Origin: an uncultured Gammaproteobacteria bacterium
GTDB taxonomy: Bacteria; Pseudomonadota; Gammaproteobacteria; SZUA-229
Direction: 5' to 3'
Length of the DNA stretch: 63,989 nt
Assembly: GCA_963768215.1 (NCBI GenBank)
Contig: CAVYHW010000075.1
Span: 1 to 63,989, forward strand
A program made the translations under genes and the position numbers. Below the pieces are notes generated by a model that was given only the letters and a program-made list of their open reading frames with translations, was not told the DNA's origin and did not search any database. Shown here in pieces: positions 1-54,782 of the stretch; position 1 is the stretch's first letter; the number at the start of each line of letters is the position of its first letter.

Positions 1-1263
1 ATCGCCTTAGGCAGCTGGTGGGCTATAACGAACTGGGCTGGGGCGGCGGTGGTTCCTGGGACCCGGTTGAGAATGCTTCATTTATGCCAGGGCCTGTTGG
101 TACAGCATTAATCCATTCGCTGGCAATGACGAAAAACGCGGCGTGTTTAAAAGCTGGACCGTGTCTCGTGGCCTATGACACTGGCTTTTTCACTTAGCCT
201 GCTTGGCACTTTTATTGTTCGTTCGCAATTTCCGTACACGCTTTTGCAACCGACCCCGCGCGGTGTGTTTATTCTTGCCTTCCTGGTCGTTGTTGTCGGT
301 GGTTCACTTGCTTTGAAATCTTGCGCTCTGCCACCGTAGTCAGTTACGGCCGTTTTCAGTGGTTCTCACGAATTTGGCATCGTTGTTAAATAACATTATT
401 TTCTTACCGCTGCAGCAGCGGTATTTGTTGGCACCATGTACCCTCTTGTTGTTGACGCTTTTGGCATAGGAAAGATTCTCCTGTTGGCCGGCCTTATTTT
501 TGACACCATGTTTGCGCTGATAGCTATTCCGCTTTCACTTCTGTGGGCATATTGGACCGATGGTGCGCTGGAAAGGTGATAGCTGGTCACGAATTGCTAA
601 AAAAGAGCTCTGACACCCTTATTTGTTGTTTCTACTGCTTGGTTTGCTGCTGCCTTTCTTGATTGAGGACCAATTAAACCTGACTACGGGACTAGGTCTC
701 GCCGCTGCATTGTGGATTGCTTTAACCACGCTCAGGGACCTGTTTTCACGTCTGTACAAACCTGCGCTTATCACTTTTCATGCCGGCATGATACGGTGCA
801 TTGGCGTAGCTGTTTTTATATCCGGGCCATAACGGTGACCATGAGCTACAGTGTAGAAAAAGATTTACGTGTAGTGCCGGGAAGCAGTTATAACATAGCA
901 GGGTTATGGATTTCCGTTTTCAGGGTACAAGAAAAGTAAAAGGTGATAACTATATAGCCGATGAGGCCTGTTATCGGAAGTCTGGTTGGGTAATGAAAAA
1001 TCAGGTGAACTGTTCCCGAAAAAAGAAACTATAGCGGTAAAAGCAGCCCGATGACAGACGCATCAATTGATAAAACTTTTTTCCGTGATTTATATGCGCC
1101 GACGGTGAAGAGCTGGAGAATGGCGCCTGGAGTATGCGGGTTTATTACAAACCGATGATTCGCTGGATCTACTTTTGGTGGCGTACTGGCAGTAAGTGAC
1201 CGTCGATATCGTCAATCAGTCAAACAGAAGCTAAACGAGAAGTTCGTCGTTTTGGCTGCCTGA
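1..1263 (+). pseudogene. Degraded mirror copy of the C-terminal two-thirds of ccmF
   Basis: Translated fragments reproduce CcmF peptides, for example LLLGLLLPFLIEDQLNLTTGLGLAAALWIALTTLRDLFSRLYK in ORF 623-832. No long ORF survives because of frequent indels. The mirrored stop TGA is at 1261-1263. Confidence 0.85.
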
Positions 1264-1302
1264 TTATTTATTGAATTTTTTAGCCTTTAGAAACTATCTG
1301 TA

Positions 1303-1500
1303 TGGAAAATAACCGCACCTTTACGTCGATTTATGCCGCTTATTTTGTTTGTGGCGCTGGTTGCGCTTCTGGCCTTTGGTTTGACGCTTAATCGACGACG
1401 GGCGCCTTCGCCATTTATCGATAAACCTGCGCCAGAGTTTGAACTTCCATTATTGTTTAAACAGGGAAGCTCTCCAAAGACTTAATGGGTCATGTGACCC
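1303..1500 (+). pseudogene. Degraded mirror copy of the ccmG 5' end
   Basis: atggaaaataacc... at 1303 mirrors the ccmG start at 1746. It has indels relative to the right arm. Confidence 0.8.
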
Positions 1501-1746
1501 GCGACAGGCAAAGCACCAGCTTGCCCAGACATTAACCAGGGTCACATGACCCATTAAGTCTTTTTTCGAAAAGCTTCCTTCTTTAAACAATAATGGAAGT
1601 TCAAACTCTGGCGCAGGTTTATCGATAAATGGCGAAGGAACCAGTCGTGGATTAAGCGTCAAACCGAAGGCCAGAAGCGCAACCAGCGCCACAAACAAAA
1701 TAAGCGGCATAAATCGACGTAAAGTAGAAGGTTGGTTATTTTCCAT
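1450..1746 (-). CDS. ccmG: CcmG/DsbE thiol:disulfide oxidoreductase, N-terminal fragment only. The sequence is authentic down to about 1501, and the last ~17 codons read into the inverted arm.
   Basis: It has an N-terminal membrane anchor and then VNVWASWCFACR (a WCxxC redox motif). It lies directly downstream of ccmF. The ORF tail after the CxxC is reverse-complement sequence from the foldback. Confidence 0.7.
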   Translation of the reverse strand: MENNQPSTLRRFMPLILFVALVALLAFGLTLNPRLVPSPFIDKPAPEFELPLLFKEGSFSKKDLMGHVTLVNVWASWCFACRGSHDPLSLWRASLFKQ

Positions 1747-1784
1747 ACAGATAGTTTCTAAAGGCTAAAAAATTCAATAAATAA

Positions 1785-3734
1785 TCATGCAGTCGAAACA
1801 GACAGCTTCTCGTTTAGCTTCTGTTTGACTGATTGACGATATCGACGGTCACTTACTGCCAGTACGCCACCAAAAGTCATCAGGATACAGCCCAGCCAGA
1901 TCCAGCGAATCATCGGTTTGTAATAAACCCGCATACTCCAGGCGCCATTCTCCAGCTCTTCACCCATGGCGCCATATAAATCACGGAAAAAAGTTTTATC
2001 AATTGATGCGTCTGTCATCGGGCTGCTTTTACCGCTATAAGTTCTTTTTTGCGGGAACAGTTCACCTGATTTTTCATTACCCGACCAGACTTCGATGACG
2101 GCCTCATCGGCTATATAGTTATCACCTTTTACTTTTCTTGTACCCTGAAAACGGAAATCATAACCTGCTATGTTATAACTGCTTCCCGGCACTACACGTA
2201 AATCTTTTTCTACACTGTAGCTCATGGTCACCGTTACGCCCGCAATAAAAACAGCGACACCAAAATGCGCCATTATCATGCCGGCATAAGAAAGTGATAA
2301 GCGCAGGTTTTTGTACAGACGTGAAAACAGGTCCCTGAGCGTGGTTAAAGCAATCCACAATGCAGCGGCAAGACCTAGTCCCGTAGTCAGGTTTAATTGG
2401 TCCTCAATCAAGAAAGGCAGCAACAAACCAAGCAGTAGAGAAACAACAAATAAGGGTGTCGCTACTTTAGCAATTCGTGACCAGCTATCACCTTTCCAGC
2501 GCACCATCGGTCCAATACCCAGCAGAAGCGAAAGCGGAATAGCTATCAGTGCAAACATGGTATCAAAATAGGGTCGGCCAACAGAAATCTTTCCTATGCC
2601 AAAAGCGTCAACGACCAAGGGGTACATGGTGCCAACAAATACCGCTGCTGCAGCGGTAAGAAAAATAATGTTATTTAACAACAATGCCGATTCACGAGAG
2701 AACCACTGAAAACGACCGTAACTGACTACGGTGGCAGAGCGCCAGGCATACAAAGCAAGTGAACCACCGACAACAACGACCAGGAAGGCAAGAATAAACA
2801 CGCCACGAGCGGGGTCGGTTGCAAAAGCGTGTACGGAAACCAGTACGCCAGAACGAACAATAAAAGTGCCAAGCAGGCTAAGTGAAAAAGCCAGTATGGC
2901 CAGTAACACGGTCCAGCTTTTAAACACGCCGCGTTTTTCAGTACTTGCCAGCGAATGGATTAATGCTGTACCAACCAGCCATGGCATAAATGAAGCATTC
3001 TCAACCGGGTCCCAGAACCACCAGCCACCCCAGCCCAGTTCGTTATAAGCCCACCAGCTGCCTAAGGCGATGCCCATGGTTAAAAAACTCCAGGCAATCG
3101 TGGTCCATGGCCTTGACCAGCGCGCCCAGGTTGCATCCAGCTTGCCACCAAGTAGAGCGGCCACAGCAAAAGCAAAAGCCACTGAAAACCCAACATATCC
3201 CATGTACAAAAGAGGTGGATGTATTATCAGCCCCGGATCCTGCAATAAAGGATTTAATTCGCTGCCATCAAGCGGTGTCGGGAAAATGCGTTCAAAAGGG
3301 TTTGAGGTAAACAGCATAAAAGCCAGGAAACCAGTGCTAATCATGCCCATTACCGCCAGTACGCGCGCCATTAAAATCTCTGGCAGGTTGCGACTGTAAA
3401 CTGCGACGGCAATAGTCCATATAGAAAGTATCAGCGACCATAATAATAAAGAACCTTCGTGTGAACCCCAAACGCCGGAAATACGATACATTAATGGCTG
3501 CACAAGGTTTGAGTGCTGTGATACATATAAAACAGAAAAATCGTACACAATGAAAGCATGGGTCAGAGCTGCATATGCCAGACCAACAAATAAAAGCTGA
3601 GCCAGGGCGGCGGGCCGCGCCAGGGAAATTAATGTGGCATCATTTTTTGCTGCGCCAATTAAAGGTACGACGCTTTGTACGATAGCAATGGCAAAAGCAA
3701 TTATTAATGCAAAATGTCCAAGTTCAGGAATCAT
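1785..3734 (-). CDS. ccmF: Cytochrome c-type biogenesis heme lyase CcmF
   Basis: 649 aa polytopic membrane protein with the WWD heme-handling motif ([18 protein letters not shown]). It sits between ccmE and ccmG. Confidence 0.97.
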   Translation of the reverse strand: MIPELGHFALIIAFAIAIVQSVVPLIGAAKNDATLISLARPAALAQLLFVGLAYAALTHAFIVYDFSVLYVSQHSNLVQPLMYRISGVWGSHEGSLLLWSLILSIWTIAVAVYSRNLPEILMARVLAVMGMISTGFLAFMLFTSNPFERIFPTPLDGSELNPLLQDPGLIIHPPLLYMGYVGFSVAFAFAVAALLGGKLDATWARWSRPWTTIAWSFLTMGIALGSWWAYNELGWGGWWFWDPVENASFMPWLVGTALIHSLASTEKRGVFKSWTVLLAILAFSLSLLGTFIVRSGVLVSVHAFATDPARGVFILAFLVVVVGGSLALYAWRSATVVSYGRFQWFSRESALLLNNIIFLTAAAAVFVGTMYPLVVDAFGIGKISVGRPYFDTMFALIAIPLSLLLGIGPMVRWKGDSWSRIAKVATPLFVVSLLLGLLLPFLIEDQLNLTTGLGLAAALWIALTTLRDLFSRLYKNLRLSLSYAGMIMAHFGVAVFIAGVTVTMSYSVEKDLRVVPGSSYNIAGYDFRFQGTRKVKGDNYIADEAVIEVWSGNEKSGELFPQKRTYSGKSSPMTDASIDKTFFRDLYGAMGEELENGAWSMRVYYKPMIRWIWLGCILMTFGGVLAVSDRRYRQSVKQKLNEKLSVSTA

Positions 3735-32466: not shown

Positions 32467-35332
32467 CTAAAAACTGCTTCCCAGTTTAAGGTATAAACGA
32501 TCTTCACCTATATCTTTATCAAAACCATGTGCGTAACCCACACGAGTGCGTAAAGGTATATGGTAGAACAGGTTAACATCTGCTGTAAGCTCAAGCCCTG
32601 CGCTGGAATAATAACTATCCGGTGAGTCATGATAAGCGCTACCGGTCTCTGCAAACACGGTAGCAAACCACTGCATTAATCCGACCGGTGGCGCCATTAC
32701 ACCCTTTTCCAGACGCTGCAGTGGAAATCGCCATTCGGCAGTAAGCAGTTGTGCACGGCGTCCGCGTAATTGCGGTAAACCTTCTTTATAACCACGAAGC
32801 GCATATTTTCGCTGATTAAAAACGGCTTCATTATTATTCGCGCCTAGTAGTATGCCTACTGCATCTTCACTAACGCCTTCGCCACCTAATTTAAAGTTTC
32901 GGGGCTGTTCCGTACCCCAGCCCTGTAAAAAACGGAAAGCAAAAACACTTTCTTTTCCTGTGCGTATATATTGCCGCCAGTCCAGGGTATAAATCTGTCC
33001 GCTAAAGTCAGAGTTTAAAATATCGCTGTCCTCTGCAACCAGGCGTAATTTCACGCCGTCATTTAAGCTGATTGATAATGGGTTAAAATTTGCTGAACTG
33101 TACAACCAGGCAAGACCCAGTAGATTATCTTCATAATCCTCATATGGGACCGCGCTTGCAGATAATGTGTTATCCGAGGTTTTATCGTATATCGCACCAA
33201 ACAATAAATTAGTTTGTGTTTGTATGTGCCTGTTTGGAAATGCAAGTACCGCAGCGGCTATATCACGATTAGAAATTCGATCTATATTTGCGTTTGTATC
33301 AAGTGTAATCTCATTCAATCTCTGGGCTGACAGGAAAAGACGGTCTGCATAGGAATAAGTTAACTGGCCCGCAGGCATCTTTAATTTTGAATCATAACTC
33401 GCATTGATAGAATAATTATGTATCCCCAGGGCGTCCGATCCCATCGTAGATATGCCGAACTCGCTACGCTGTTCAGTTAAGCCAAAGGTTGGAAACCACC
33501 AACGTGGATACATGTTTGACAATGCAGAGTAGTCATTCTGTTGATGCGCTCTGATGGGGTAATCTATGATCTGTAAACGGTCATCCGAAAAATCGGCTGA
33601 TATTGCAGCAGTACCGTTATCCTTACGTTTATCTACGTCAGGTTTATCCATGTTAAGTTTATAGACGGCCATAACCTTCTGCCGTGTAAGCCGTATAATA
33701 TATTGCGCCATTGCTTCTTGCCTGGCTTGACTGAAAAGCACCGCCAAGTAGGTTGGTAATTTGTTCAACTTTTCCGCTAGTAGAAATATAACGATGAAGA
33801 TTGTAAACACCGTTTTTTTCCAGGCTAAACAGAATGTTTCCATCCGGATCAAATTGCGGGTTTGCAGTTATATTTACATCACGGGTAATTTTATCCCAGC
33901 GTTTGCTGGTGAGATCAAATAACTCCAGGTTCCAGCCATCACCTTTTCTCCATATCGAAGATACAACTTTATTGCTATCAGCTGAAACATCAATCTGGCC
34001 GAGAATTTCGCCATTGCCTGCCTGCCATAAAATCTCCCGCAACTGCCCGCGCGCATCTAACAAATGCAGCTCAAACCGGTTTTTTTCGTTATGTACTGCC
34101 ATGATCTGTTTGCCATCTGGAAACCAGCTGGCGAAAAGATAGCGACCGCATTCAGTTAACCGCTTTAGCTTATTGTTGTTTTTGTTGTATAAATAAATAT
34201 CTTTATAGATCGTATAGTTATTACAGAACTCATTCTGTGTCAGTAACAAACCAGCTTCAGGATGTATATCCAGGTCCACATTATTATTTAAATCTATTAA
34301 TTCTTCGCTGCTGCCATCCGGTCTGATAATTATAAGTCCCGGGCGTTTATATCCGTTGTTGCGCACATAATAAATTTCATCACCCTGGTCTGTTGCCACT
34401 GCACGAACAGAGTCTGTTTTATATGCATCTGCTGTCAGCTGAATACCCTGTTTGATCCCTCTGGATTTAATCGCCTGAATTTGCGGCTGAAATTTTTCAT
34501 CTAGCCAGTGCTCATACTCTTCCCACAACGCGGTTATATTTTTACCTAAAACCTGGCTCGCATTTGTGTTGATGAAGAATGGAAACAAATTATCACTATA
34601 TTCGTCAATCCACTCCTGTAATTTATTTTCGCCATAGGTTTCAGCTACAAAATTCATAAAGTACACGCCATACAAATAACCTGTGGTTCCAGATGGCCAG
34701 GTATTAACAGGTAAGTTCACATGGGAAACCGGTTGCAGTCCATTATCAACTTCTACACGCATCATTGAAGCAAACATCGTGCTTTGGCCGCGGCCAATTC
34801 CGCGGTCTGGAAAGGTTTCCTTATAGGTTGCTAAACCTTCTATCACCCAGCCCGGTTGAAATAAATTCGGAAATAATAAAAAGAATCGTCCAAAGATATT
34901 TTTTAAATATTCAGGTGAGCCTGCACTTTTATCGAGATGAATGATATGTGTGTATTCATGAATAATTAATGTGCTTAACCAGTCGTCAAAATCTTCCAGC
35001 GTATTAATACTGGTTGGAGGCGCCAAAAATATAACGGTACGATTAAAATAAACCGGAGTAGCAAAGCCATTTGGATGGTCGCTTTCATCACTAAGGATTA
35101 CATGGGTTTTTTCTACGGGAGACCAGTTAAGCTCTTTTGTTAATCGTAGATGGGCAGCCTCTGATATGGCTAATACTGTTTCAGCAATCTCTTTATTGTC
35201 ATCGGCATAATGAACATACAGGTGTTCACTTTCTATGGTTTTCCAGTTAAGGCCCGGGTCTACTGCATAAGCAGTGTCATTGATAAATATAAAACATGCA
35301 ATTATAACGATAAGTCGTTTTAATATAACCAT
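32467..35332 (-). pseudogene. Secreted HExxH peptidase-like / TolB-type beta-propeller / C-terminal beta-barrel protein, split by one frameshift near 33665
   Basis: ORFs 33659-35332 (signal peptide, IHEYTHIIH, propeller repeats) and 32467-33852 (ends ...YLKLGSSF) overlap by ~190 nt in adjacent frames. The junction is ...TAEGYG(R L *) / AVYKLNMDKPD. Confidence 0.65.
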
Positions 35333-48510: not shown

Positions 48511-49603
48511 ATGAATCACACTGGAGTAACTATGAAAGCTGTTCAGTTTAATGCACTGATCATTATGGCAGTGCTGTCTTTATCTTCCTCGCAATATGCT
48601 CATGCTGACGAGCATGACCATAGTAGACATGTTAGTCATGCTAATCACTCTGGTCATGATCACAGCAGACCTGATAGTCACGCACCGATTGGCGTTATGG
48701 GTGATCACCTGATGCGTGAAGGCGAACACATGATAAGTTACCGTTTTATGTCTATGGACATGGAAGGCAACCGAACTGGTACAGACCATGTTGATGTGCC
48801 TCTGACAGGTTATATGGTCAGCCCACTGGCGATGGACATGGATATGCATATGCTTGGAGCTATGTATGCACCATCAGACAAGCTTACTTTAATGGTAATG
48901 GTTCCATACGTATCCATCTCTATGGACCACCTCAGACATATGCCTATGCCTAACGGACTTGAGTTTACGACAGAGTCTAGTGGCATTGGTGATGTAAAAC
49001 TGGCGGCAATATATGGTCTGTTTGCTAAACCTGGAACTGATTTCCTGTTTAACTTTGCTGTCAATGCACCGACCGGGTCGATTGACGAGGAAGATGACCT
49101 GCCAACTATGCCAACGCCTACCAGTAATGCGCATTTGCCTTATCCCATGCAGCTGGGTTCGGGAACCTGGGATTTCACACCGGGTCTGACTTTTGTGCAA
49201 ACCTACGATAACTGGTCGTGGGGAGCGCAAGGTCTGTACACATTCAGAACGGGTGAAAATGATAATGGGTACACACTAGGTAACAAACTGGAGGCGACTG
49301 CATGGGCTGCTAAAAAGGTATCGAAATCAACCAGCCTTTCTTTTCGTTTGAAAGCACTGGACTGGGACAATATCGATGGCGCTGATACTAAGTTGACGTG
49401 ATGCCGACTAGGTGCCAACGGCCGATCCAAACCGTCGCGCTGGTACACGCGTTGATACGCTCGTTGGTATCAACTTCGTTCCGCCTGGATTAACCAGTCT
49501 GCGTCTTGCTGCTGAAGTGGGTGCACCTGTTTATCAGAAACTGGACGGCCCGCAACTGGAAACTGATCTTGTGTTTACTCTGGGTACGCAATATACCTTC
49601 TAA
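48511..49603 (+). pseudogene. Outer-membrane beta-barrel (phenol-MetA/transporter-like) with a His/Met-rich N-terminus, frame-disrupted near 49400
   Basis: It has a signal peptide, HADEHDHSRHVSHANHSGHDHSRPDSH and MDMDMHM. ORF 48511-49401 stops, and the C-terminal strands (...LVFTLGTQYTF) continue in another frame from 49412. Confidence 0.6.
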
Positions 49604-49702
49604 ATAGAAAGTCCAGGCTGAGTAGGGAAACTCAACATTACAAAATAAACAGCTATGTGTATCAGTCCGTCAGGATCTGACGGACAATCAGCTGACCTTT
49701 TA

Positions 49703-50206
49703 TCAGAGATTCTCATCCGATTTCGGGTATTTTTCTTTGACCTGGCTGATTAGAGTATCCAGCCTGATCTGTTCTGAATGATCACCCCGGCGCGCCTTGT
49801 AGGCAGCATCCAGCTGGTCCCCTACACTGGGATATTCTTTAAGACGCTGGGCGGCATGGTCCTTCGTCGGATCAATACCAGAGATCGTTTTCAATGCCTG
49901 CTCAAGTTCTTCGGGATTTGGCTGGGGTACAGTGGAATTAAACCATTCTTCAATAAAAGCGCCCTCTCCAGGGCCTCCTTCCTTAACGATGTAATCAATG
50001 CCGGCATGTATTGTTGGATGAAGGTAATGTATGGCGCGACAGAGTGAGCGGACCTCATCATTTTGCCTGATATTGGATTGCTGCCTGGCCACCTGCTGAA
50101 CCAGTGTTTTCGTGGCATGTGTGTTCAACCTCAGGACGTATACCCAGATACATACGAACAACAGGATAACGAGGATGGTGTTGATTGTCGGGTTGTCAAA
50201 TAACAT
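49703..50206 (-). CDS. Membrane-anchored hypothetical protein with an XkdW-like (phage) central region
   Basis: 167 aa and intact. GAFIEEWFNSTVPQPNPEELEQAL resembles the Bacillus XkdW motif SYIEKWNLRAPLPTQAELE. This comparison is from memory. Confidence 0.35.
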   Translation of the reverse strand: MLFDNPTINTILVILLFVCIWVYVLRLNTHATKTLVQQVARQQSNIRQNDEVRSLCRAIHYLHPTIHAGIDYIVKEGGPGEGAFIEEWFNSTVPQPNPEELEQALKTISGIDPTKDHAAQRLKEYPSVGDQLDAAYKARRGDHSEQIRLDTLISQVKEKYPKSDENL

Positions 50207-50706
50207 GGCGAGTAATTCTCCTGATGATGAAAACAGTAGTGAATTGTTGCAAGTATCAACAAAGTCAGTTTATCTTATTCCTTAAAAGCGTGAAAGACGC
50301 CTGGCTAGTATGTAATCTTTATATATGTCTCTTAAGTGACGCATTTTACTTTCAGATGATGTAGCAGTCAGCTTGTTGCGGGTTTGTTGTATTTTCTGCT
50401 TAATTTTCTTTTATTACTTCAACATTAATAATGAGATATTGAATTCATTTTTGTAACAATCGCCACGGCATCAAAACAAAAATTAAATATAAGTACTATC
50501 GTCTTGAATTATCAAGATTGCATGGCAGTTCAAAATACCGCATCAGCAAGCTTATTCAATTCTGTAAACAAACTCTACAAGCTGTGTTATATCACGCACT
50601 TTTAAGTTGAGTATTTTTGTAACTCTTTGAATTTACATGGCTAAATAATTGGCGCGTTTATTGCTATAGATGTTATTAAGTAAAATAAATAAAGTGTGGA
50701 GAAAGC

Positions 50707-52334
50707 ATGAAACATATATCGATTATTAGGACAGTATTAAAATTGACGCTGGTTGGCGTGACAGTTTTACTTGTTGCCTGCGGTGGTTCTAGTGGCAGCT
50801 CTAACGATGCCAGTATCAGCGGCACTATTGTTGCGGCACCGGTTAATGGTGCGGACGTCAGTGTCGTAGATGCTAATGGCAATGTTGTGGCAGGCCCTGT
50901 AAAAACCGATGCTGCTGGTAAGTACACATTAAGCATACCAAATGCCAGCCTGGCTCAGGACCTGATTGTTAAATCTACAGGCGGTACATTTACTGATGAA
51001 GCAACCGGCAATTCTGGAACGGCTGGTGAAATGTATGCTTATGCATCAGCTAATTCATTAAGCAATGGCAGCAGTGTATCAGCAACACCGGGATCAGCGA
51101 TTATTGCAAATCTTGTTATGGATCATGGTAAAACTATGACCCAGGCACAGGATGCTTTTGCTAGTGCATTTGGTTATACACCGGATATGTCAGTTACTCC
51201 TGCAGATGCAACAACGGCTCCAGCAGCGGATGAAACTGCATGGAATCTACACTGGCAGGTTTCCGTGCCGCTGCATTCAGTCAGCTGGCTATGGACCTGG
51301 GTTTATCGCAGGATGATCAGTTTGAATTGTTTGCCGCTCTGGCTCAGGATTTATCTGATGATAAGCTGGATGGGGTTGATGCCTCTGGTGCTGTTGCTAT
51401 AGGGACTACCGGCTCTACGCTTGAAGCGGATATTCAAAATCGCTTTGCAATGGCGCTGATAAATTTCAAAAACAATCCTAATAATTTGACAGAGCTTGAT
51501 AATAACGAGTTTGGCGATATTCCATTTGCCAAAGTGGCGTTAACAACCAGTTACCGGGTTGATTATATATTCGACAGGTTCGATGGCTCCCGTCAATGGT
51601 AAATCTACCTTCCAGATCCATGTTACCAATCGTAGTGATGGTAGTGATGCAACGGGTCTTACAACTATGCTGATGCCGGTGATGAATATGCTTGGTACTC
51701 ATAAGCATAGTACGCCAATGCCGACACCTGCTGTAATTGAAGACTGCTGGTGGTGGCTTATATAACGTTACACTTTACTATTTGATGCCTACCGCAATGG
51801 GGGGATACTGGGACCTGAAATTTATGGTTGCTGGTGAAGAAGCGCATTTTTATCCAACAGTAATGATGGCAATGGGCGATACAGCTCAGGTCAGGCTTAA
51901 AGGTGTTGATGATAAAATCATGTCTATGATGACCGGCACTATGGTTGGTCGTACTTATTTCATGTTTAAAGATAGCCTGACAGGTGGTATGGGATCTTAT
52001 GATTTTTCTGTCTTTGTTGCTGCTCAGGAAACCATGATGAATTTCCCTGCTGTATTTGATAACAGCATGCTAAGTGGTAATACACTTGTTAATGCAACAG
52101 TTGAAATTTCTGATGATGATGGTGCTAGCTGGACTCTAGCAACAGACGGTGGTAATGGCGTCTGGACTGCAACTGGTTTGACATTAACTGATGGTGTGGA
52201 AGATCAGATCAGGATCAGAGTTAACTATTGACGATACTGTTGTTGATGAAATGAAAACTACAAATGGTTTAATCAGAGAAGTTGATGTTAATGATTACCA
52301 GACGTTCACAGTAACCCCCGGCATGAGCATGTAG
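50707..52334 (+). pseudogene. Lipoprotein with a YtkA-like metal-binding-type C-terminal domain, at least 4 frameshifts
   Basis: The lipobox is LLVACGGSSG. The coding signal passes through frames 1>0>1>2>0 (ORFs 50707, 51240, 51559, 51737 and a tail to 52334). Contains MPVMNMLGTHKHSTPM...GGYWDLKF. Confidence 0.65.
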
Positions 52335-52375
52335 GCTGTTAATGTGAAAAAAGAATATCTCACCCCTGCATTTCG

Positions 52376-53341
52376 ATGCAGGTATTCTGTGGCCTCCTTA
52401 TGGGGGCCACTTTTTTGTTCAGTTCGTCAGCATGGTCTGCCTCCTGTTGTGGCGGTGGTTCTGCCACCTCGCTGGTTCTGCCCAAGTTCTCCAAGTCGAT
52501 GATCAATATTGCGTTGGACGTGGAGAGTTATGATGGTTTCTGGGATGGCGATGGTAATCTATCGGAATGATCCGCCGGGTTCTGATCTTAACCAGTATCG
52601 TTTGAATTTTGGTTATGCCCATCGGTTGGCGCCGCGCTGGCAGGCCGCTATTGTTGCGCCTTATGTGTGGAACAGTAACCAGTATGCCGGTTTGTCATCC
52701 AATACCAATGGACTGGGGGATATGACACTGGGCCTGACCTATGAAGCCTTCGATGGCATCAAGTGTGTGTGGAAAGTGCGAGACTGGAAAGACCTGGTTC
52801 CCGCTGCTTACTTCGGTCTGGCTTTAACCGTACCGACAGGTATCTCACCCTATGATAATGTGGAAAACAGTTTTGATATTACCGGGCGAGGATTTTATCG
52901 CCTTGACGGCAACATCCTGCTCGATAAAACCATTTATCCGTGGAACGCTTCACTGCTGTTTTCTTATGGTAAATATCTTGAGCGGGATGTTAATCGTGAA
53001 TACGGTAACTATGTCGAACCTTATAAAAAGGAGCTGGGTGACAGGATGCTGGGCACTGCAACTTTTGGTTACACTCACTTCCTCGATAATATGGATACCA
53101 TGACTTTTAGTCTTTCCTATTCACACCTGCAGGAAGATGCAGGGAAGTATCGATGGTCGGCCATGATGTTACCAGCGAGATGGAAAAGAACTCGGTTGGT
53201 GCGATACTGGCTTACTCTACGATGAATCGTGACTGGGTCTATAAACTCACCTTTATTCATGCCTTTCCGGAAGATGGTCAGGGCCAGAATTTTCCCGTCA
53301 CTGATATTTTGACACTGGGGGTTAGCCATGTTTTCCGCTAG
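52376..53341 (+). pseudogene. Second outer-membrane beta-barrel protein, 2 frameshifts
   Basis: ORFs 52376-52570, 52509-53225 and 53153-53341 overlap in frames 2>0>2 and read as one continuous barrel-like sequence ending ...LGVSHVFR. Confidence 0.6.
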
Positions 53342-53901
53342 ATTGATTATGCGAATCGTATATACTTGGCGCTTCACTGGGCATGGCAGGATGTGATGGT
53401 ATAACCGATGACCTGCTTCCTTCAGGTGATGATAACCGGCCAGTCTGTTGAGGCGGGAACTATTGGGACAAATGTTGGACAGATTGCACCTGATTTTCCA
53501 GTAGAGGTTCTGGATACACTTGGTAACAGCTCGTGGCCTCTATGATGAGCTTTCAAAGCCGGGTGTCACTGGCGTAGTGCTTTATTTCACATATGTGGTG
53601 TCCTGTCTGTGATAGTCACATGAGCCATATGCGTGCCAATGTTATGCCAAATTTTCCCGCAGTTAGTTTCTTTCTTGTCGATTATGTGAGTGGTTCGGTT
53701 TCAGCCTCTCGTAATGCGCAACAGTCTAGCGGTTATGGCAGCATTGAAACGCTGGTTGACACCGATCAGGCTGTGACTGATTTATACCAGGCATCCATGG
53801 GTACGACCGTTGTTATAGACAGTGCAGGCAACATTGTCAGGATGAATGAAGATTACAAGGACGGCGTAAAGCTCAGCGAAACATTGCAGGCACTGCCATG
53901 A
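53328..53901 (+). pseudogene. Thioredoxin-fold lipoprotein (WCPVC), at least 4 frameshifts
   Basis: Fragments lie in different frames: MFSARLIMRIV, LGASLGMAGC (lipobox), TIGTNVGQIAPDFPVEVLD, LYDELSKPGVTGVVLYFT, then MWCPVCDSH... (ORF 53593-53901). Confidence 0.6.
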
Positions 53902-54240
53902 AAATGATTCAGATTATTTTCATCTGTTTGATTTTGCCGGTGTCTTTTTTGCAGGTTGCACAGGCCGATGAGAAACAAAGCTCATCAGAGCAGACAGAAG
54001 AGGAAATGACAGGCAGTGAAAGAGCCGTCTATGCAGAAAGTCTGTTTGACAGGCAGGTGCCAGATGTGTCATCAGCTTCCGGAGCCGGGTATGCTGAGAC
54101 CAAATCAATGGAAATTAATACTTGTGACCATGCAGCAACGAATGCAGCAGGCTGGTGTACCACCGTTGACGGAAAAAGAAACTGAATTGCTACTCGCCTA
54201 CTTGCGGAAAGGTCACGTTAGACGTAGCGTCAGCAAGTAA
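53898..54240 (+). pseudogene. Small monoheme c-type cytochrome, 1 frameshift
   Basis: The signal peptide ORF (53898-) and the CQMCH-containing ORF (54016-54240) lie in adjacent frames. Confidence 0.55.
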
Positions 54241-54260: not shown

Positions 54261-54782
54261 ATGAGAAAACAAATTATTTTTCCGTTATTGTTTATGTTGA
54301 GTGGAGCAGTTCAGGCAACAGCACCGCTGGCCGATTTATTTGTTGTGCCTGAGGTTGCTCGACATACTGCGCCGGATTTTGTCTCAGAAAATCTGCGTGG
54401 TGGAAATACTGGCCTGGAAGATTATAAGGGCAAGATCGTGCTGCTTAATTTCTGGGCTACCTGGTGTATGCCTTGCCGCGCTGAAATGCCGGGAATGGAA
54501 ACACTGTGGCAGAAATATAAAGAACAGGGTCTGGTGATTGCCGCTGTCTCTGTTGACGAAGGATCTAAAGGACGGATTGAAACATTTTCAAAATTACTCG
54601 ATTTGAGTTTTCCCATCTTGCTGGACCCGGAAAGCAAGGTGAGTGACCTGTATAAAGTATCCAGCATGCCTACCAGTTTTTTGATCGATCGCAATGGAAA
54701 AATTATCAGTCGTATTGTTGGTACAGAGGAATGGTCATCGCCGGAGGCTATTCAGTTTGTTGAAGGTCTTCTTTCTCAATAG
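54261..54782 (+). CDS. TlpA/ResA-family periplasmic thiol:disulfide oxidoreductase
   Basis: 173 aa with a signal peptide and NFWATWCMPCRAEMP. Confidence 0.85.
   Translation: MRKQIIFPLLFMLSGAVQATAPLADLFVVPEVARHTAPDFVSENLRGGNTGLEDYKGKIVLLNFWATWCMPCRAEMPGMETLWQKYKEQGLVIAAVSVDEGSKGRIETFSKLLDLSFPILLDPESKVSDLYKVSSMPTSFLIDRNGKIISRIVGTEEWSSPEAIQFVEGLLSQ

Follow-up and report, generated by a model that had tools for sequence, protein, structure and literature searches.

Operon-wide pseudogenization under relaxed selection is known from host-restricted lineages, e.g., Mycobacterium leprae and Shigella. Natural bacterial indels favor deletions and homopolymer slippage, and mutation-accumulation work places the neutral substitution-to-indel ratio at roughly 10:1. 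Indels that fragment genes have also been documented in long-read assemblies (PMC12007338), in which errors gather where coverage or polishing fails and foldback chimeric reads occur at contig ends (PMC12007338, PMC6487183). The window analyzed here, a 63,989-nucleotide stretch of an uncultured gammaproteobacterial draft genome, contains an envelope gene cluster that resembles both situations. As in the decay of M. leprae or Shigella, adjacent genes of one unit are all disrupted and relatives keep intact copies; however, real decay combines frameshifts with nonsense codons, deletions, and raised amino acid change, whereas this cluster carries small indels only and its conserved residues are untouched. 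As in assemblies with long-read (nanopore or PacBio CLR) errors, conserved genes are cut into overlapping ORFs by small indels, with few substitutions. Unlike typical long-read errors, the lesions are insertion biased and unusually dense relative to the rest of the contig. On balance, we regard the locus as an unpolished long-read consensus patch over an intact operon, i.e., as sequencing error rather than natural gene decay, with a probability of about 0.85.

Frame disruptions across five consecutive genes

The features that bear on this reading are as follows.

1..3071, no strand: imperfect foldback that opens the contig; ~1540-3071 recurs in reverse complement as bases 1 to ~1500
48532..49603, + strand: gene 1, outer-membrane barrel of ~356 aa when the frames are joined, N-terminus His/Met-rich; lesions -1 near 49399, +2 near 49410
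49703..50206, - strand: intact 167-aa ORF from the ORF list, between genes 1 and 2, with an N-terminal hydrophobic helix
50707..52334, + strand: gene 2, lipoprotein of ~535 aa, lipobox LLVAC; lesions +2 near 51241, +1 near 51570, +1 near 51745, and +1 (or -2) near 52220
52376..53341, + strand: gene 3, second outer-membrane barrel, ~321 aa; +1 lesions near 52556, 53142, and 53164
53328..53901, + strand: gene 4, thioredoxin-fold lipoprotein of ~189 aa, WCPVC; +1 lesions near 53355, 53440, 53531, and 53592
53898..54221, + strand: gene 5, small secreted protein of ~107 aa, probable monoheme cytochrome c, CQMCH; lesions +1 near 54051 and -1 near 54205
54261..54782, + strand: intact TlpA-type thiol:disulfide oxidoreductase, 173 aa, WCMPC; Pfam AhpC-TSA 1.6e-29, Redoxin 1.7e-22
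49399..54205, no strand: putative error patch of 4.8 kb holding 15 frame-shifting indels (~1 per 320 nt), with clean sequence on both sides and whole flanking genes

Each of the five co-directional genes appears in the ORF listing as overlapping pieces in different frames, and frameshift-aware protein-to-DNA alignment against intact orthologs placed 15 frame-shifting indels in them (48.5-54.2 kb), all inside 49399-54205. Both analyses bear out the preliminary description, which had found five consecutive genes readable only by hopping between frames. Its lesion counts (1-2, 4, 2, at least 4, and 1) agree with ours (2, 4, 3, 4, and 2 for genes 1-5) in genes 1, 2, and 4, whereas genes 3 and 5 each hold one more than it had counted. 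The lesions are mixed in sign and size (+1, +2, -1) and share no slippery motif; insertions make up 13 of the 15, and no lesion falls within a homopolymer of at least 4 bases. After frame correction, not one in-frame stop is left in the ~1,560 codons of the five genes.

Intact orthologous clusters occur in at least seven genomes of the same genus. As had been proposed, the cluster was compared with them: in an eight-genome DNA alignment, all seven relatives are intact and every frame-shifting indel in genes 3-5 is private to the window. In the sequence outside both patch and foldback, where about two comparable lesions had been claimed, one was confirmed, at ~33.7 kb, in a core gene split into 561 + 461 aa (orthologs, 945-952 aa); ~56 kb of the window holds just one lesion. 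With 15 of 16 lesions falling within 4.8 kb of a ~61-kb contig, a uniform scatter is impossible. The TlpA-type gene and the opposite-strand ORF at 49703 are both whole, as previously described.

In the retention of conserved residues, the corrected proteins match intact orthologs. Gene 1 aligns to its orthologs with 279 of 350 identical residues, two frameshifts, and no stops, and an intact 351-aa ortholog occupies the same position in one relative (G001). The gene 2 alignment (406 of 523 residues identical) requires four frameshifts and no stops, with a single deviation at 77 conserved columns; intact orthologs measure 530-573 aa. Gene 3 has more than 1,000 homologs at E <= 1e-20, the 120 listed spanning 275-347 aa (mostly 306-338 aa), and the closest database protein among these is 94% identical. 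Its alignment contains three frameshifts and no stops. Set against 113 homologs, it shows no deviation at the 86 columns conserved to at least 97% and one conservative change at the 133 columns conserved to at least 90%, where the median intact homolog has four; the mature N-terminus A-S-C-C-G-G-G-S is kept in 113/113 homologs. Alignment of gene 4 to five references gave four frameshifts, no stops, and no deviation at any of the 58 columns invariant in all other sequences. This gene also carries one in-frame 6-nt insertion, private to the window, and its intact orthologs are 180-196 aa long. The start of gene 5 overlaps the gene 4 stop (ATGA); two frameshifts and no stops were found in its alignment, together with deviations at 3 of 47 conserved columns, and its intact orthologs have 109-117 aa.

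Assembly quality and the origin of the lesions

Signs of raw-read quality recur in this assembly. The arms of the foldback at the contig start share 91% identity, with 53 mismatches and 45 indel events, and imperfect multi-kb palindromes of 85-97% identity are also present in contigs C29, C60, C97, and C101. Neither short-read assembly nor natural duplication at contig ends would be expected to produce such structures. At least 10 further frameshift-split genes were found elsewhere in the genome; Pfam profile coordinates continue across the break in the heme-copper oxidase subunit I, a ribonucleotide reductase copy, DctP, and a sugar kinase, and splits were judged by eye in a NorD-like vWA protein, an AMP-ligase, a porin, and a SurA-like PPIase. 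A same-strand ORF-overlap heuristic returned 100 candidates and served to pick cases for verification rather than to count split genes, its specificity being ~1/5 for all overlaps and ~10/16 for overlaps of at least 100 nt. A hexamer coding-potential Viterbi model with frameshift transitions recovered 2-3 of the 15 known lesions and was dropped. An argument based on the breakage of an essential gene was likewise abandoned, as C66 carries an intact paralog of the ribonucleotide reductase that is split on C27. The 12 large housekeeping genes examined are whole, and the errors are therefore patchy.

Our reading starts from a normal, intact envelope operon, conserved in relatives, in the order His/Met-rich barrel, Met-rich lipoprotein, second barrel, thioredoxin-fold lipoprotein, small cytochrome c, and TlpA. 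An assembly built from noisy long reads would be accurate over most of its length, and the ~4.8 kb at 49.4-54.2 kb would have kept long-read-only consensus quality, with ~0.3% error, nearly all of it small indels. Uncorrected consensus errors would thereby break the reading frames in this record. A local failure of polishing or coverage is the probable cause, and such a failure could plausibly reflect strain variability of this accessory cluster in the sampled community. The preliminary description had left the choice between decay and a low-quality assembly patch; indel-only lesions without nonsense codons, the retention of conserved residues, and the raw-read-grade foldbacks and split genes elsewhere favor the latter. 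Natural indels in bacteria, in addition, do not typically show such an insertion bias or such a lack of homopolymer context.

Of the 25 genomes of the genus, this one included, 11 carry the cluster. Its content varies from relative to relative: gene 1 and the 167-aa ORF are found in some and missing from others, and the lipoprotein has a mosaic structure. In one relative's MAG, two near-identical but diverged copies lie on different contigs and have separate sets of frameshifts; the copies differ by +1 insertions, which in one copy break the thioredoxin-like and TlpA genes and in the other break trpB. By analogy, these private +1 breaks would fit the consensus-error reading of the window. The contig names of that MAG suggest a long-read assembly.

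Genuine and very recent pseudogenization, in which one inactivating hit abolished the selective value of the unit and frameshifts then followed in all five genes, would account for the confinement of the lesions to one functional unit with intact neighbors, in a cluster that is accessory in the genus. It nevertheless seems unlikely. At a substitution-to-indel ratio of ~10:1, 15 indels should have been accompanied by ~150 substitutions, several stops, and ~9 changes at conserved columns in the second barrel alone, where 0-1 were observed; the lesions include no nonsense codon, and conserved residues show no excess change. The insertion bias outside homopolymers does not match the natural indel spectrum either, and raw-read artifacts are demonstrable in the same assembly. 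Real indels might also have been left by a localized, insertion-biased, indel-only process, e.g., an error-prone repair or recombination tract, acting on one accessory envelope operon. We rate such a process as quite improbable; if it did operate, the five genes were inactivated almost at once, before substitutions accumulated. Recoding, by contrast, has a negligible probability: the one point in favor of frames being joined in the cell, through transcriptional slippage or programmed ribosomal frameshifting, is that the pieces add up to full-length proteins, and the 15 sites differ in sign and size, lack a common slippery motif or homopolymer, and are not conserved in any of the seven relatives, which encode these proteins in one frame. 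The comparative alignment effectively refutes it.

Within the artifact explanation, the patch might be a chimeric consensus, in which reads of two co-occurring strains, or of a paralogous copy, were blended at the assembly or polishing stage and indels arose where the variants differ. This is conceivable, though doubtful. These communities do contain strain pairs of that kind, as the two-copy MAG shows, and cluster content is variable between relatives; but the contigs of this genome hold a single cluster copy, and a chimera should also have left substitution mosaics, yet conserved positions are clean. Consensus error as such has observations against it as well. The assembly is mostly accurate, with 12 large genes whole and ~56 kb carrying one lesion, so that the reading needs some special local cause. 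The patch also falls on an accessory operon, where relaxed selection would be expected. Finally, the residual errors of a nanopore consensus are not, by the textbook, strongly biased toward insertions.

Gene content and possible function of the cluster

TlpA/ResA/CcmG-type periplasmic thiol:disulfide oxidoreductases reduce apocytochrome c, ScoI, and CoxB. In resemblance to these enzymes, the cluster has two secreted or lipid-anchored thioredoxin-fold CxxC proteins, adjacent to a probable c-type cytochrome; it differs in having no above-threshold Sco1/SenC match and no PCuAC or Ccm partner. Most of the gene identities first proposed from the sequence were sustained: those of the two barrels, the thioredoxin-fold lipoprotein, and the TlpA-type reductase by profile searches, and that of the small cytochrome by its CxxCH motif together with weak profile hits below cut-off. 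Both barrels score above the gathering threshold of Pfam PF13557 (Phenol_MetA_deg), gene 1 at 44 bits and gene 3 at 30.1 bits (cut-off, 22), and thus qualify as members of a family whose named role is itself just putative. The literature on PF13557 yielded no functional lead for this cluster. To our knowledge, neither a His/Met-rich N-terminus, as in gene 1, nor the A-S-C-C-G-G-G-S N-terminus of gene 3 is a described feature of the family. Intact orthologs of gene 4 match AhpC-TSA at 28.3 bits (Pfam cut-off, 26) and, weakly, a ResA-like NCBIfam model; the C-terminal fragment of the window alone reaches 20.3 bits. The monoheme form of gene 5 scores 18-20 bits with cytochrome profiles, under the cut-off of 22.2, which dihaem orthologs pass. 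In relatives, the TlpA-type gene closes the conserved part of the cluster and has the same length and position.

The lipoprotein is the exception. Its C-terminus forms a conserved Met/His-rich beta-sandwich region, which had been taken for a YtkA-like domain. This assignment fails: Pfam searches returned no YtkA-like match in the window pieces (E <= 0.1), in three intact orthologs (E <= 0.05), or in seven orthologs at E <= 5, and gene 2 orthologs hit no Pfam family above threshold. An AF2 model of a gene 2 ortholog (pLDDT 64.6) retrieved generic Ig-like fold matches only in a Foldseek comparison with the PDB, and a profile search of PDB sequences found nothing. Profile searches likewise found no family match for the 167-aa ORF, which is absent from this position in relatives and has a 68% identical homolog in only one of them (G022).

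The cluster had further been interpreted as a module for handling copper or another soft metal. The redox components of this proposal hold, but copper-handling families are not matched: no CopB/PcoB, CopC, or PCuAC profile was hit at E <= 0.05 in the window pieces or intact orthologs, or at E <= 5 in seven lipoprotein orthologs, and SCO1/SenC gave just a weak trace of 13.5 bits on the TlpA gene, below its cut-off of 22.8. In more distant relatives, the cluster adjoins NHL-repeat multiheme MtrC-like cytochromes and di-heme peroxidases, a neighborhood that points to cytochrome or redox biology as much as to copper. A copper-handling role of the cluster is unproven. One candidate substrate of the thioredoxin-fold proteins may be the invariant N-terminal Cys-Cys of the second barrel.

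The main value of this case is cautionary, since frameshifts crowded into a single operon of a long-read metagenome draft can pass for gene decay. Error and decay can be separated by tests that need no reads, i.e., counts of nonsense codons against frameshifts, the state of conserved residues after correction, the indel spectrum, and foldback artifacts. Calling these five genes pseudogenes would misstate the envelope and redox repertoire of the organism. The underlying operon is real, widespread, to judge from the homologs of its second barrel, and uncharacterized, and it may merit study in an intact relative.

Frame breaks in five genes of a six-gene operon, probably a consensus error

The window spans an entire contig of 63,989 bases from a draft genome of 2.27 Mb (124 contigs, 81% complete) that belongs to an uncultured gammaproteobacterial genus; six co-directional genes lie at 48.5-54.8 kb. 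When several intact ortholog proteins were aligned to this DNA with frameshifts allowed, 15 frame lesions were placed in the first five genes, within a patch at 49399-54205.

Features of the operon and its surroundings, with lesions and ortholog sizes in relatives
Gene 1, plus strand: His/Met-rich outer-membrane barrel (PF13557); 2 lesions; orthologs 340-351 aa
Gene 2, plus strand: lipoprotein of ~535 aa; 4 lesions; orthologs 530-573 aa
Gene 3, plus strand: second barrel (PF13557); 3 lesions; orthologs 322-331 aa
Gene 4, plus strand: thioredoxin-fold lipoprotein, a CxxC protein with WCPVC; 4 lesions; orthologs 180-196 aa
Gene 5, plus strand: small putative cytochrome with a CxxCH motif; 2 lesions; orthologs 109-117 aa (monohaem) or 159-173 aa (dihaem)
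Sixth gene, 54261-54782, plus strand: TlpA-type oxidoreductase, a thioredoxin-fold CxxC protein; intact; orthologs 173-177 aa
49703-50206, minus strand: intact 167-aa ORF between genes 1 and 2
32467-35332, minus strand: conserved secreted protein cut into 561 and 461 aa by one frameshift

The dense frame disruption with intact flanks proposed in the preliminary description is borne out by this alignment and by comparison with relatives, where the same gene order is found downstream of priA and a fructosamine-kinase gene and all the genes are whole. In an eight-genome DNA alignment, each frame-shifting indel of genes 3-5 was private to the window. The genes flanking the patch are whole, and beyond it and the terminal foldback one lesion was confirmed, at ~33.7 kb in the secreted protein (945-952 aa in most relatives, a 649-aa truncated frame in two). 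Such clustering of lesions is thus genuine and much denser than chance would give. The gene cluster is accessory: 11 of the genus's 25 genomes have it, this one counted, and its content varies between relatives. The 167-aa ORF, which has an N-terminal hydrophobic helix and is followed by an AT-rich spacer of ~500 bp, has a 68% homolog in a single relative (G022), at another genomic place.

Probable assembly artefacts in this genome and possible ones in relatives' MAGs

The window opens with an imperfect foldback (1-3071): read as its reverse complement, the stretch from base 1 to ~1500 matches ~1540-3071 at 91% identity, and the two arms differ by 53 mismatches and 45 indel events. A single raw long read set against a polished consensus would diverge in this way, and the structure resembles a chimeric long read at a contig end. 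An ORF on the accurate arm (1785-3734) is whole. Imperfect multi-kilobase palindromes (85-97% identity, many gap openings) recur on four other contigs of the genome, C29 (5' 0.3-6 kb), C60 (2.9-6 kb), C97 (last 3.8 kb) and C101 (last 5.3 kb), and are apparently artefacts of this type. An ORF-overlap screen, with candidates checked against Pfam or by eye, verified at least 10 other split genes across the genome, among them haem-copper oxidase subunit I, a ribonucleotide reductase copy, a DctP binding protein, a sugar kinase, a NorD-like protein, an AMP-ligase, a porin and a SurA-like isomerase, and contig C6 carries split SurA-like and cytochrome genes. Twelve large housekeeping genes are whole, among them those for RpoC, GyrB, SecA, EF-G, DnaK, GroEL, IF2, Lon and UvrA; the assembly is therefore mostly accurate and its errors patchy. 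The ribonucleotide reductase large subunit occurs in two copies, 81% identical, one with a LAGLIDADG intein and a frameshift (C27, 2968-4411) and one whole (C66, ~23.8-24.4 kb), which may come from a strain mixture or bin contamination.

Parallel lesions occur in a relative's MAG, which holds two copies of the cluster, 97-98% identical, on separate contigs (L014 and L021). The thioredoxin-like and TlpA genes of L021 are frameshifted and trpB is split in L014, in each case by +1 insertions like those of the window; contig names suggest a long-read assembly. In another relative (G004, L011:5460-5530), the conserved ATG start of the lipoprotein lies one base out of frame with the gene body and the longest ORF begins at a downstream TTG, which may likewise be a minor consensus error in this relative's long-read MAG.

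Decay weighed against consensus error

The nearest protein among 5.8 billion database clusters is 94% identical, so the source population offers no independent copy for comparison. Decay and error were weighed by indirect tests, namely lesion type, conserved residues, indel spectrum and the assembly itself. In real decay, nonsense mutations arise together with frameshifts, and no in-frame stop was found in ~1,560 frame-corrected codons. In mutation-accumulation work substitutions usually outnumber indels, so that 15 neutral indels would be accompanied by roughly 100 substitutions or more; no such excess is visible at conserved columns of the corrected proteins. Aligned with 113 intact homologs, the corrected second barrel deviates at 0 of 86 columns conserved at ≥97% and at 1 of 133 conserved at ≥90% (Ala to Ser), against 4 for the median intact homolog. 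The corrected lipoprotein (1/77), thioredoxin-fold protein (0/58) and cytochrome (3/47, with two of the three in the signal peptide) likewise resemble their intact orthologs in the retention of conserved residues. Natural bacterial indels tend toward deletions and toward slippage in runs, whereas insertions make up 13 of the 15 lesions, none of which falls in a run of four or more identical bases.

The preliminary description had offered decay or a poor assembly patch. Lesion type, retained residues, indel spectrum and foldbacks favor the patch and make genuine recent decay of the operon unlikely; the comparative alignment leaves practically no room for recoding that joins the frames. We consider it about 85% probable that the frame breaks reflect unpolished long-read consensus over an intact operon. 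The organism would carry the genes whole, and a stretch of ~4.8 kb would have been left as long-read-only consensus with an indel error of roughly 0.3%. Shallow coverage or ambiguous placement of reads at the polishing step is a plausible local cause, since the cluster is accessory, variable in content and present as two diverged copies in at least one community. The observation is confirmed, but the clustered frameshifts most probably do not represent a genuine biological feature.

Function of the underlying operon

Both barrels of the preliminary description are PF13557 members, gene 4 and TlpA are thioredoxin-fold CxxC proteins, and gene 5 has a CxxCH motif. The YtkA-like domain that the description placed in the lipoprotein is not supported: YtkA, CopC and PCuAC profiles matched none of the cluster proteins scanned, and SCO1/SenC gave a weak sub-threshold match on TlpA only. 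In the lipoprotein, a domain like Ig/CarboxypepD_reg at the N-terminus is followed by a helical middle part and by C-terminal beta-sandwiches that bear invariant Met/His/Trp motifs (LMPxMxM...H, YYxMP, GYW and FYPxVMMxM); a fold search with this protein was uninformative. The mature second barrel begins with A-S-C-C-G-G-G-S-x-S-S-L-x-L-P-K (52445-52470), a motif invariant throughout this barrel family (113 homologs). Its vicinal cysteines have two thiol:disulfide oxidoreductase genes as neighbors and may therefore belong to a redox-controlled or metal-binding plug. In more distant relatives, the gene immediately upstream of the cluster encodes an NHL-repeat beta-propeller fused to a multihaem MtrC/MtrF-like cytochrome (L022:668-3142, L020:58-2058 and L023:442-2910), and several closer relatives have a di-haem cytochrome c peroxidase gene a few genes downstream (L014:9976-10971 and L016:4313-5833). 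A role in soft-metal (Cu(I)) handling would be compatible with the operon because the lipoprotein carries Met/His motifs, and an outer-membrane redox or cytochrome role is equally open. For functional work, the operon as preserved intact in relatives would be a sensible target in its own right.
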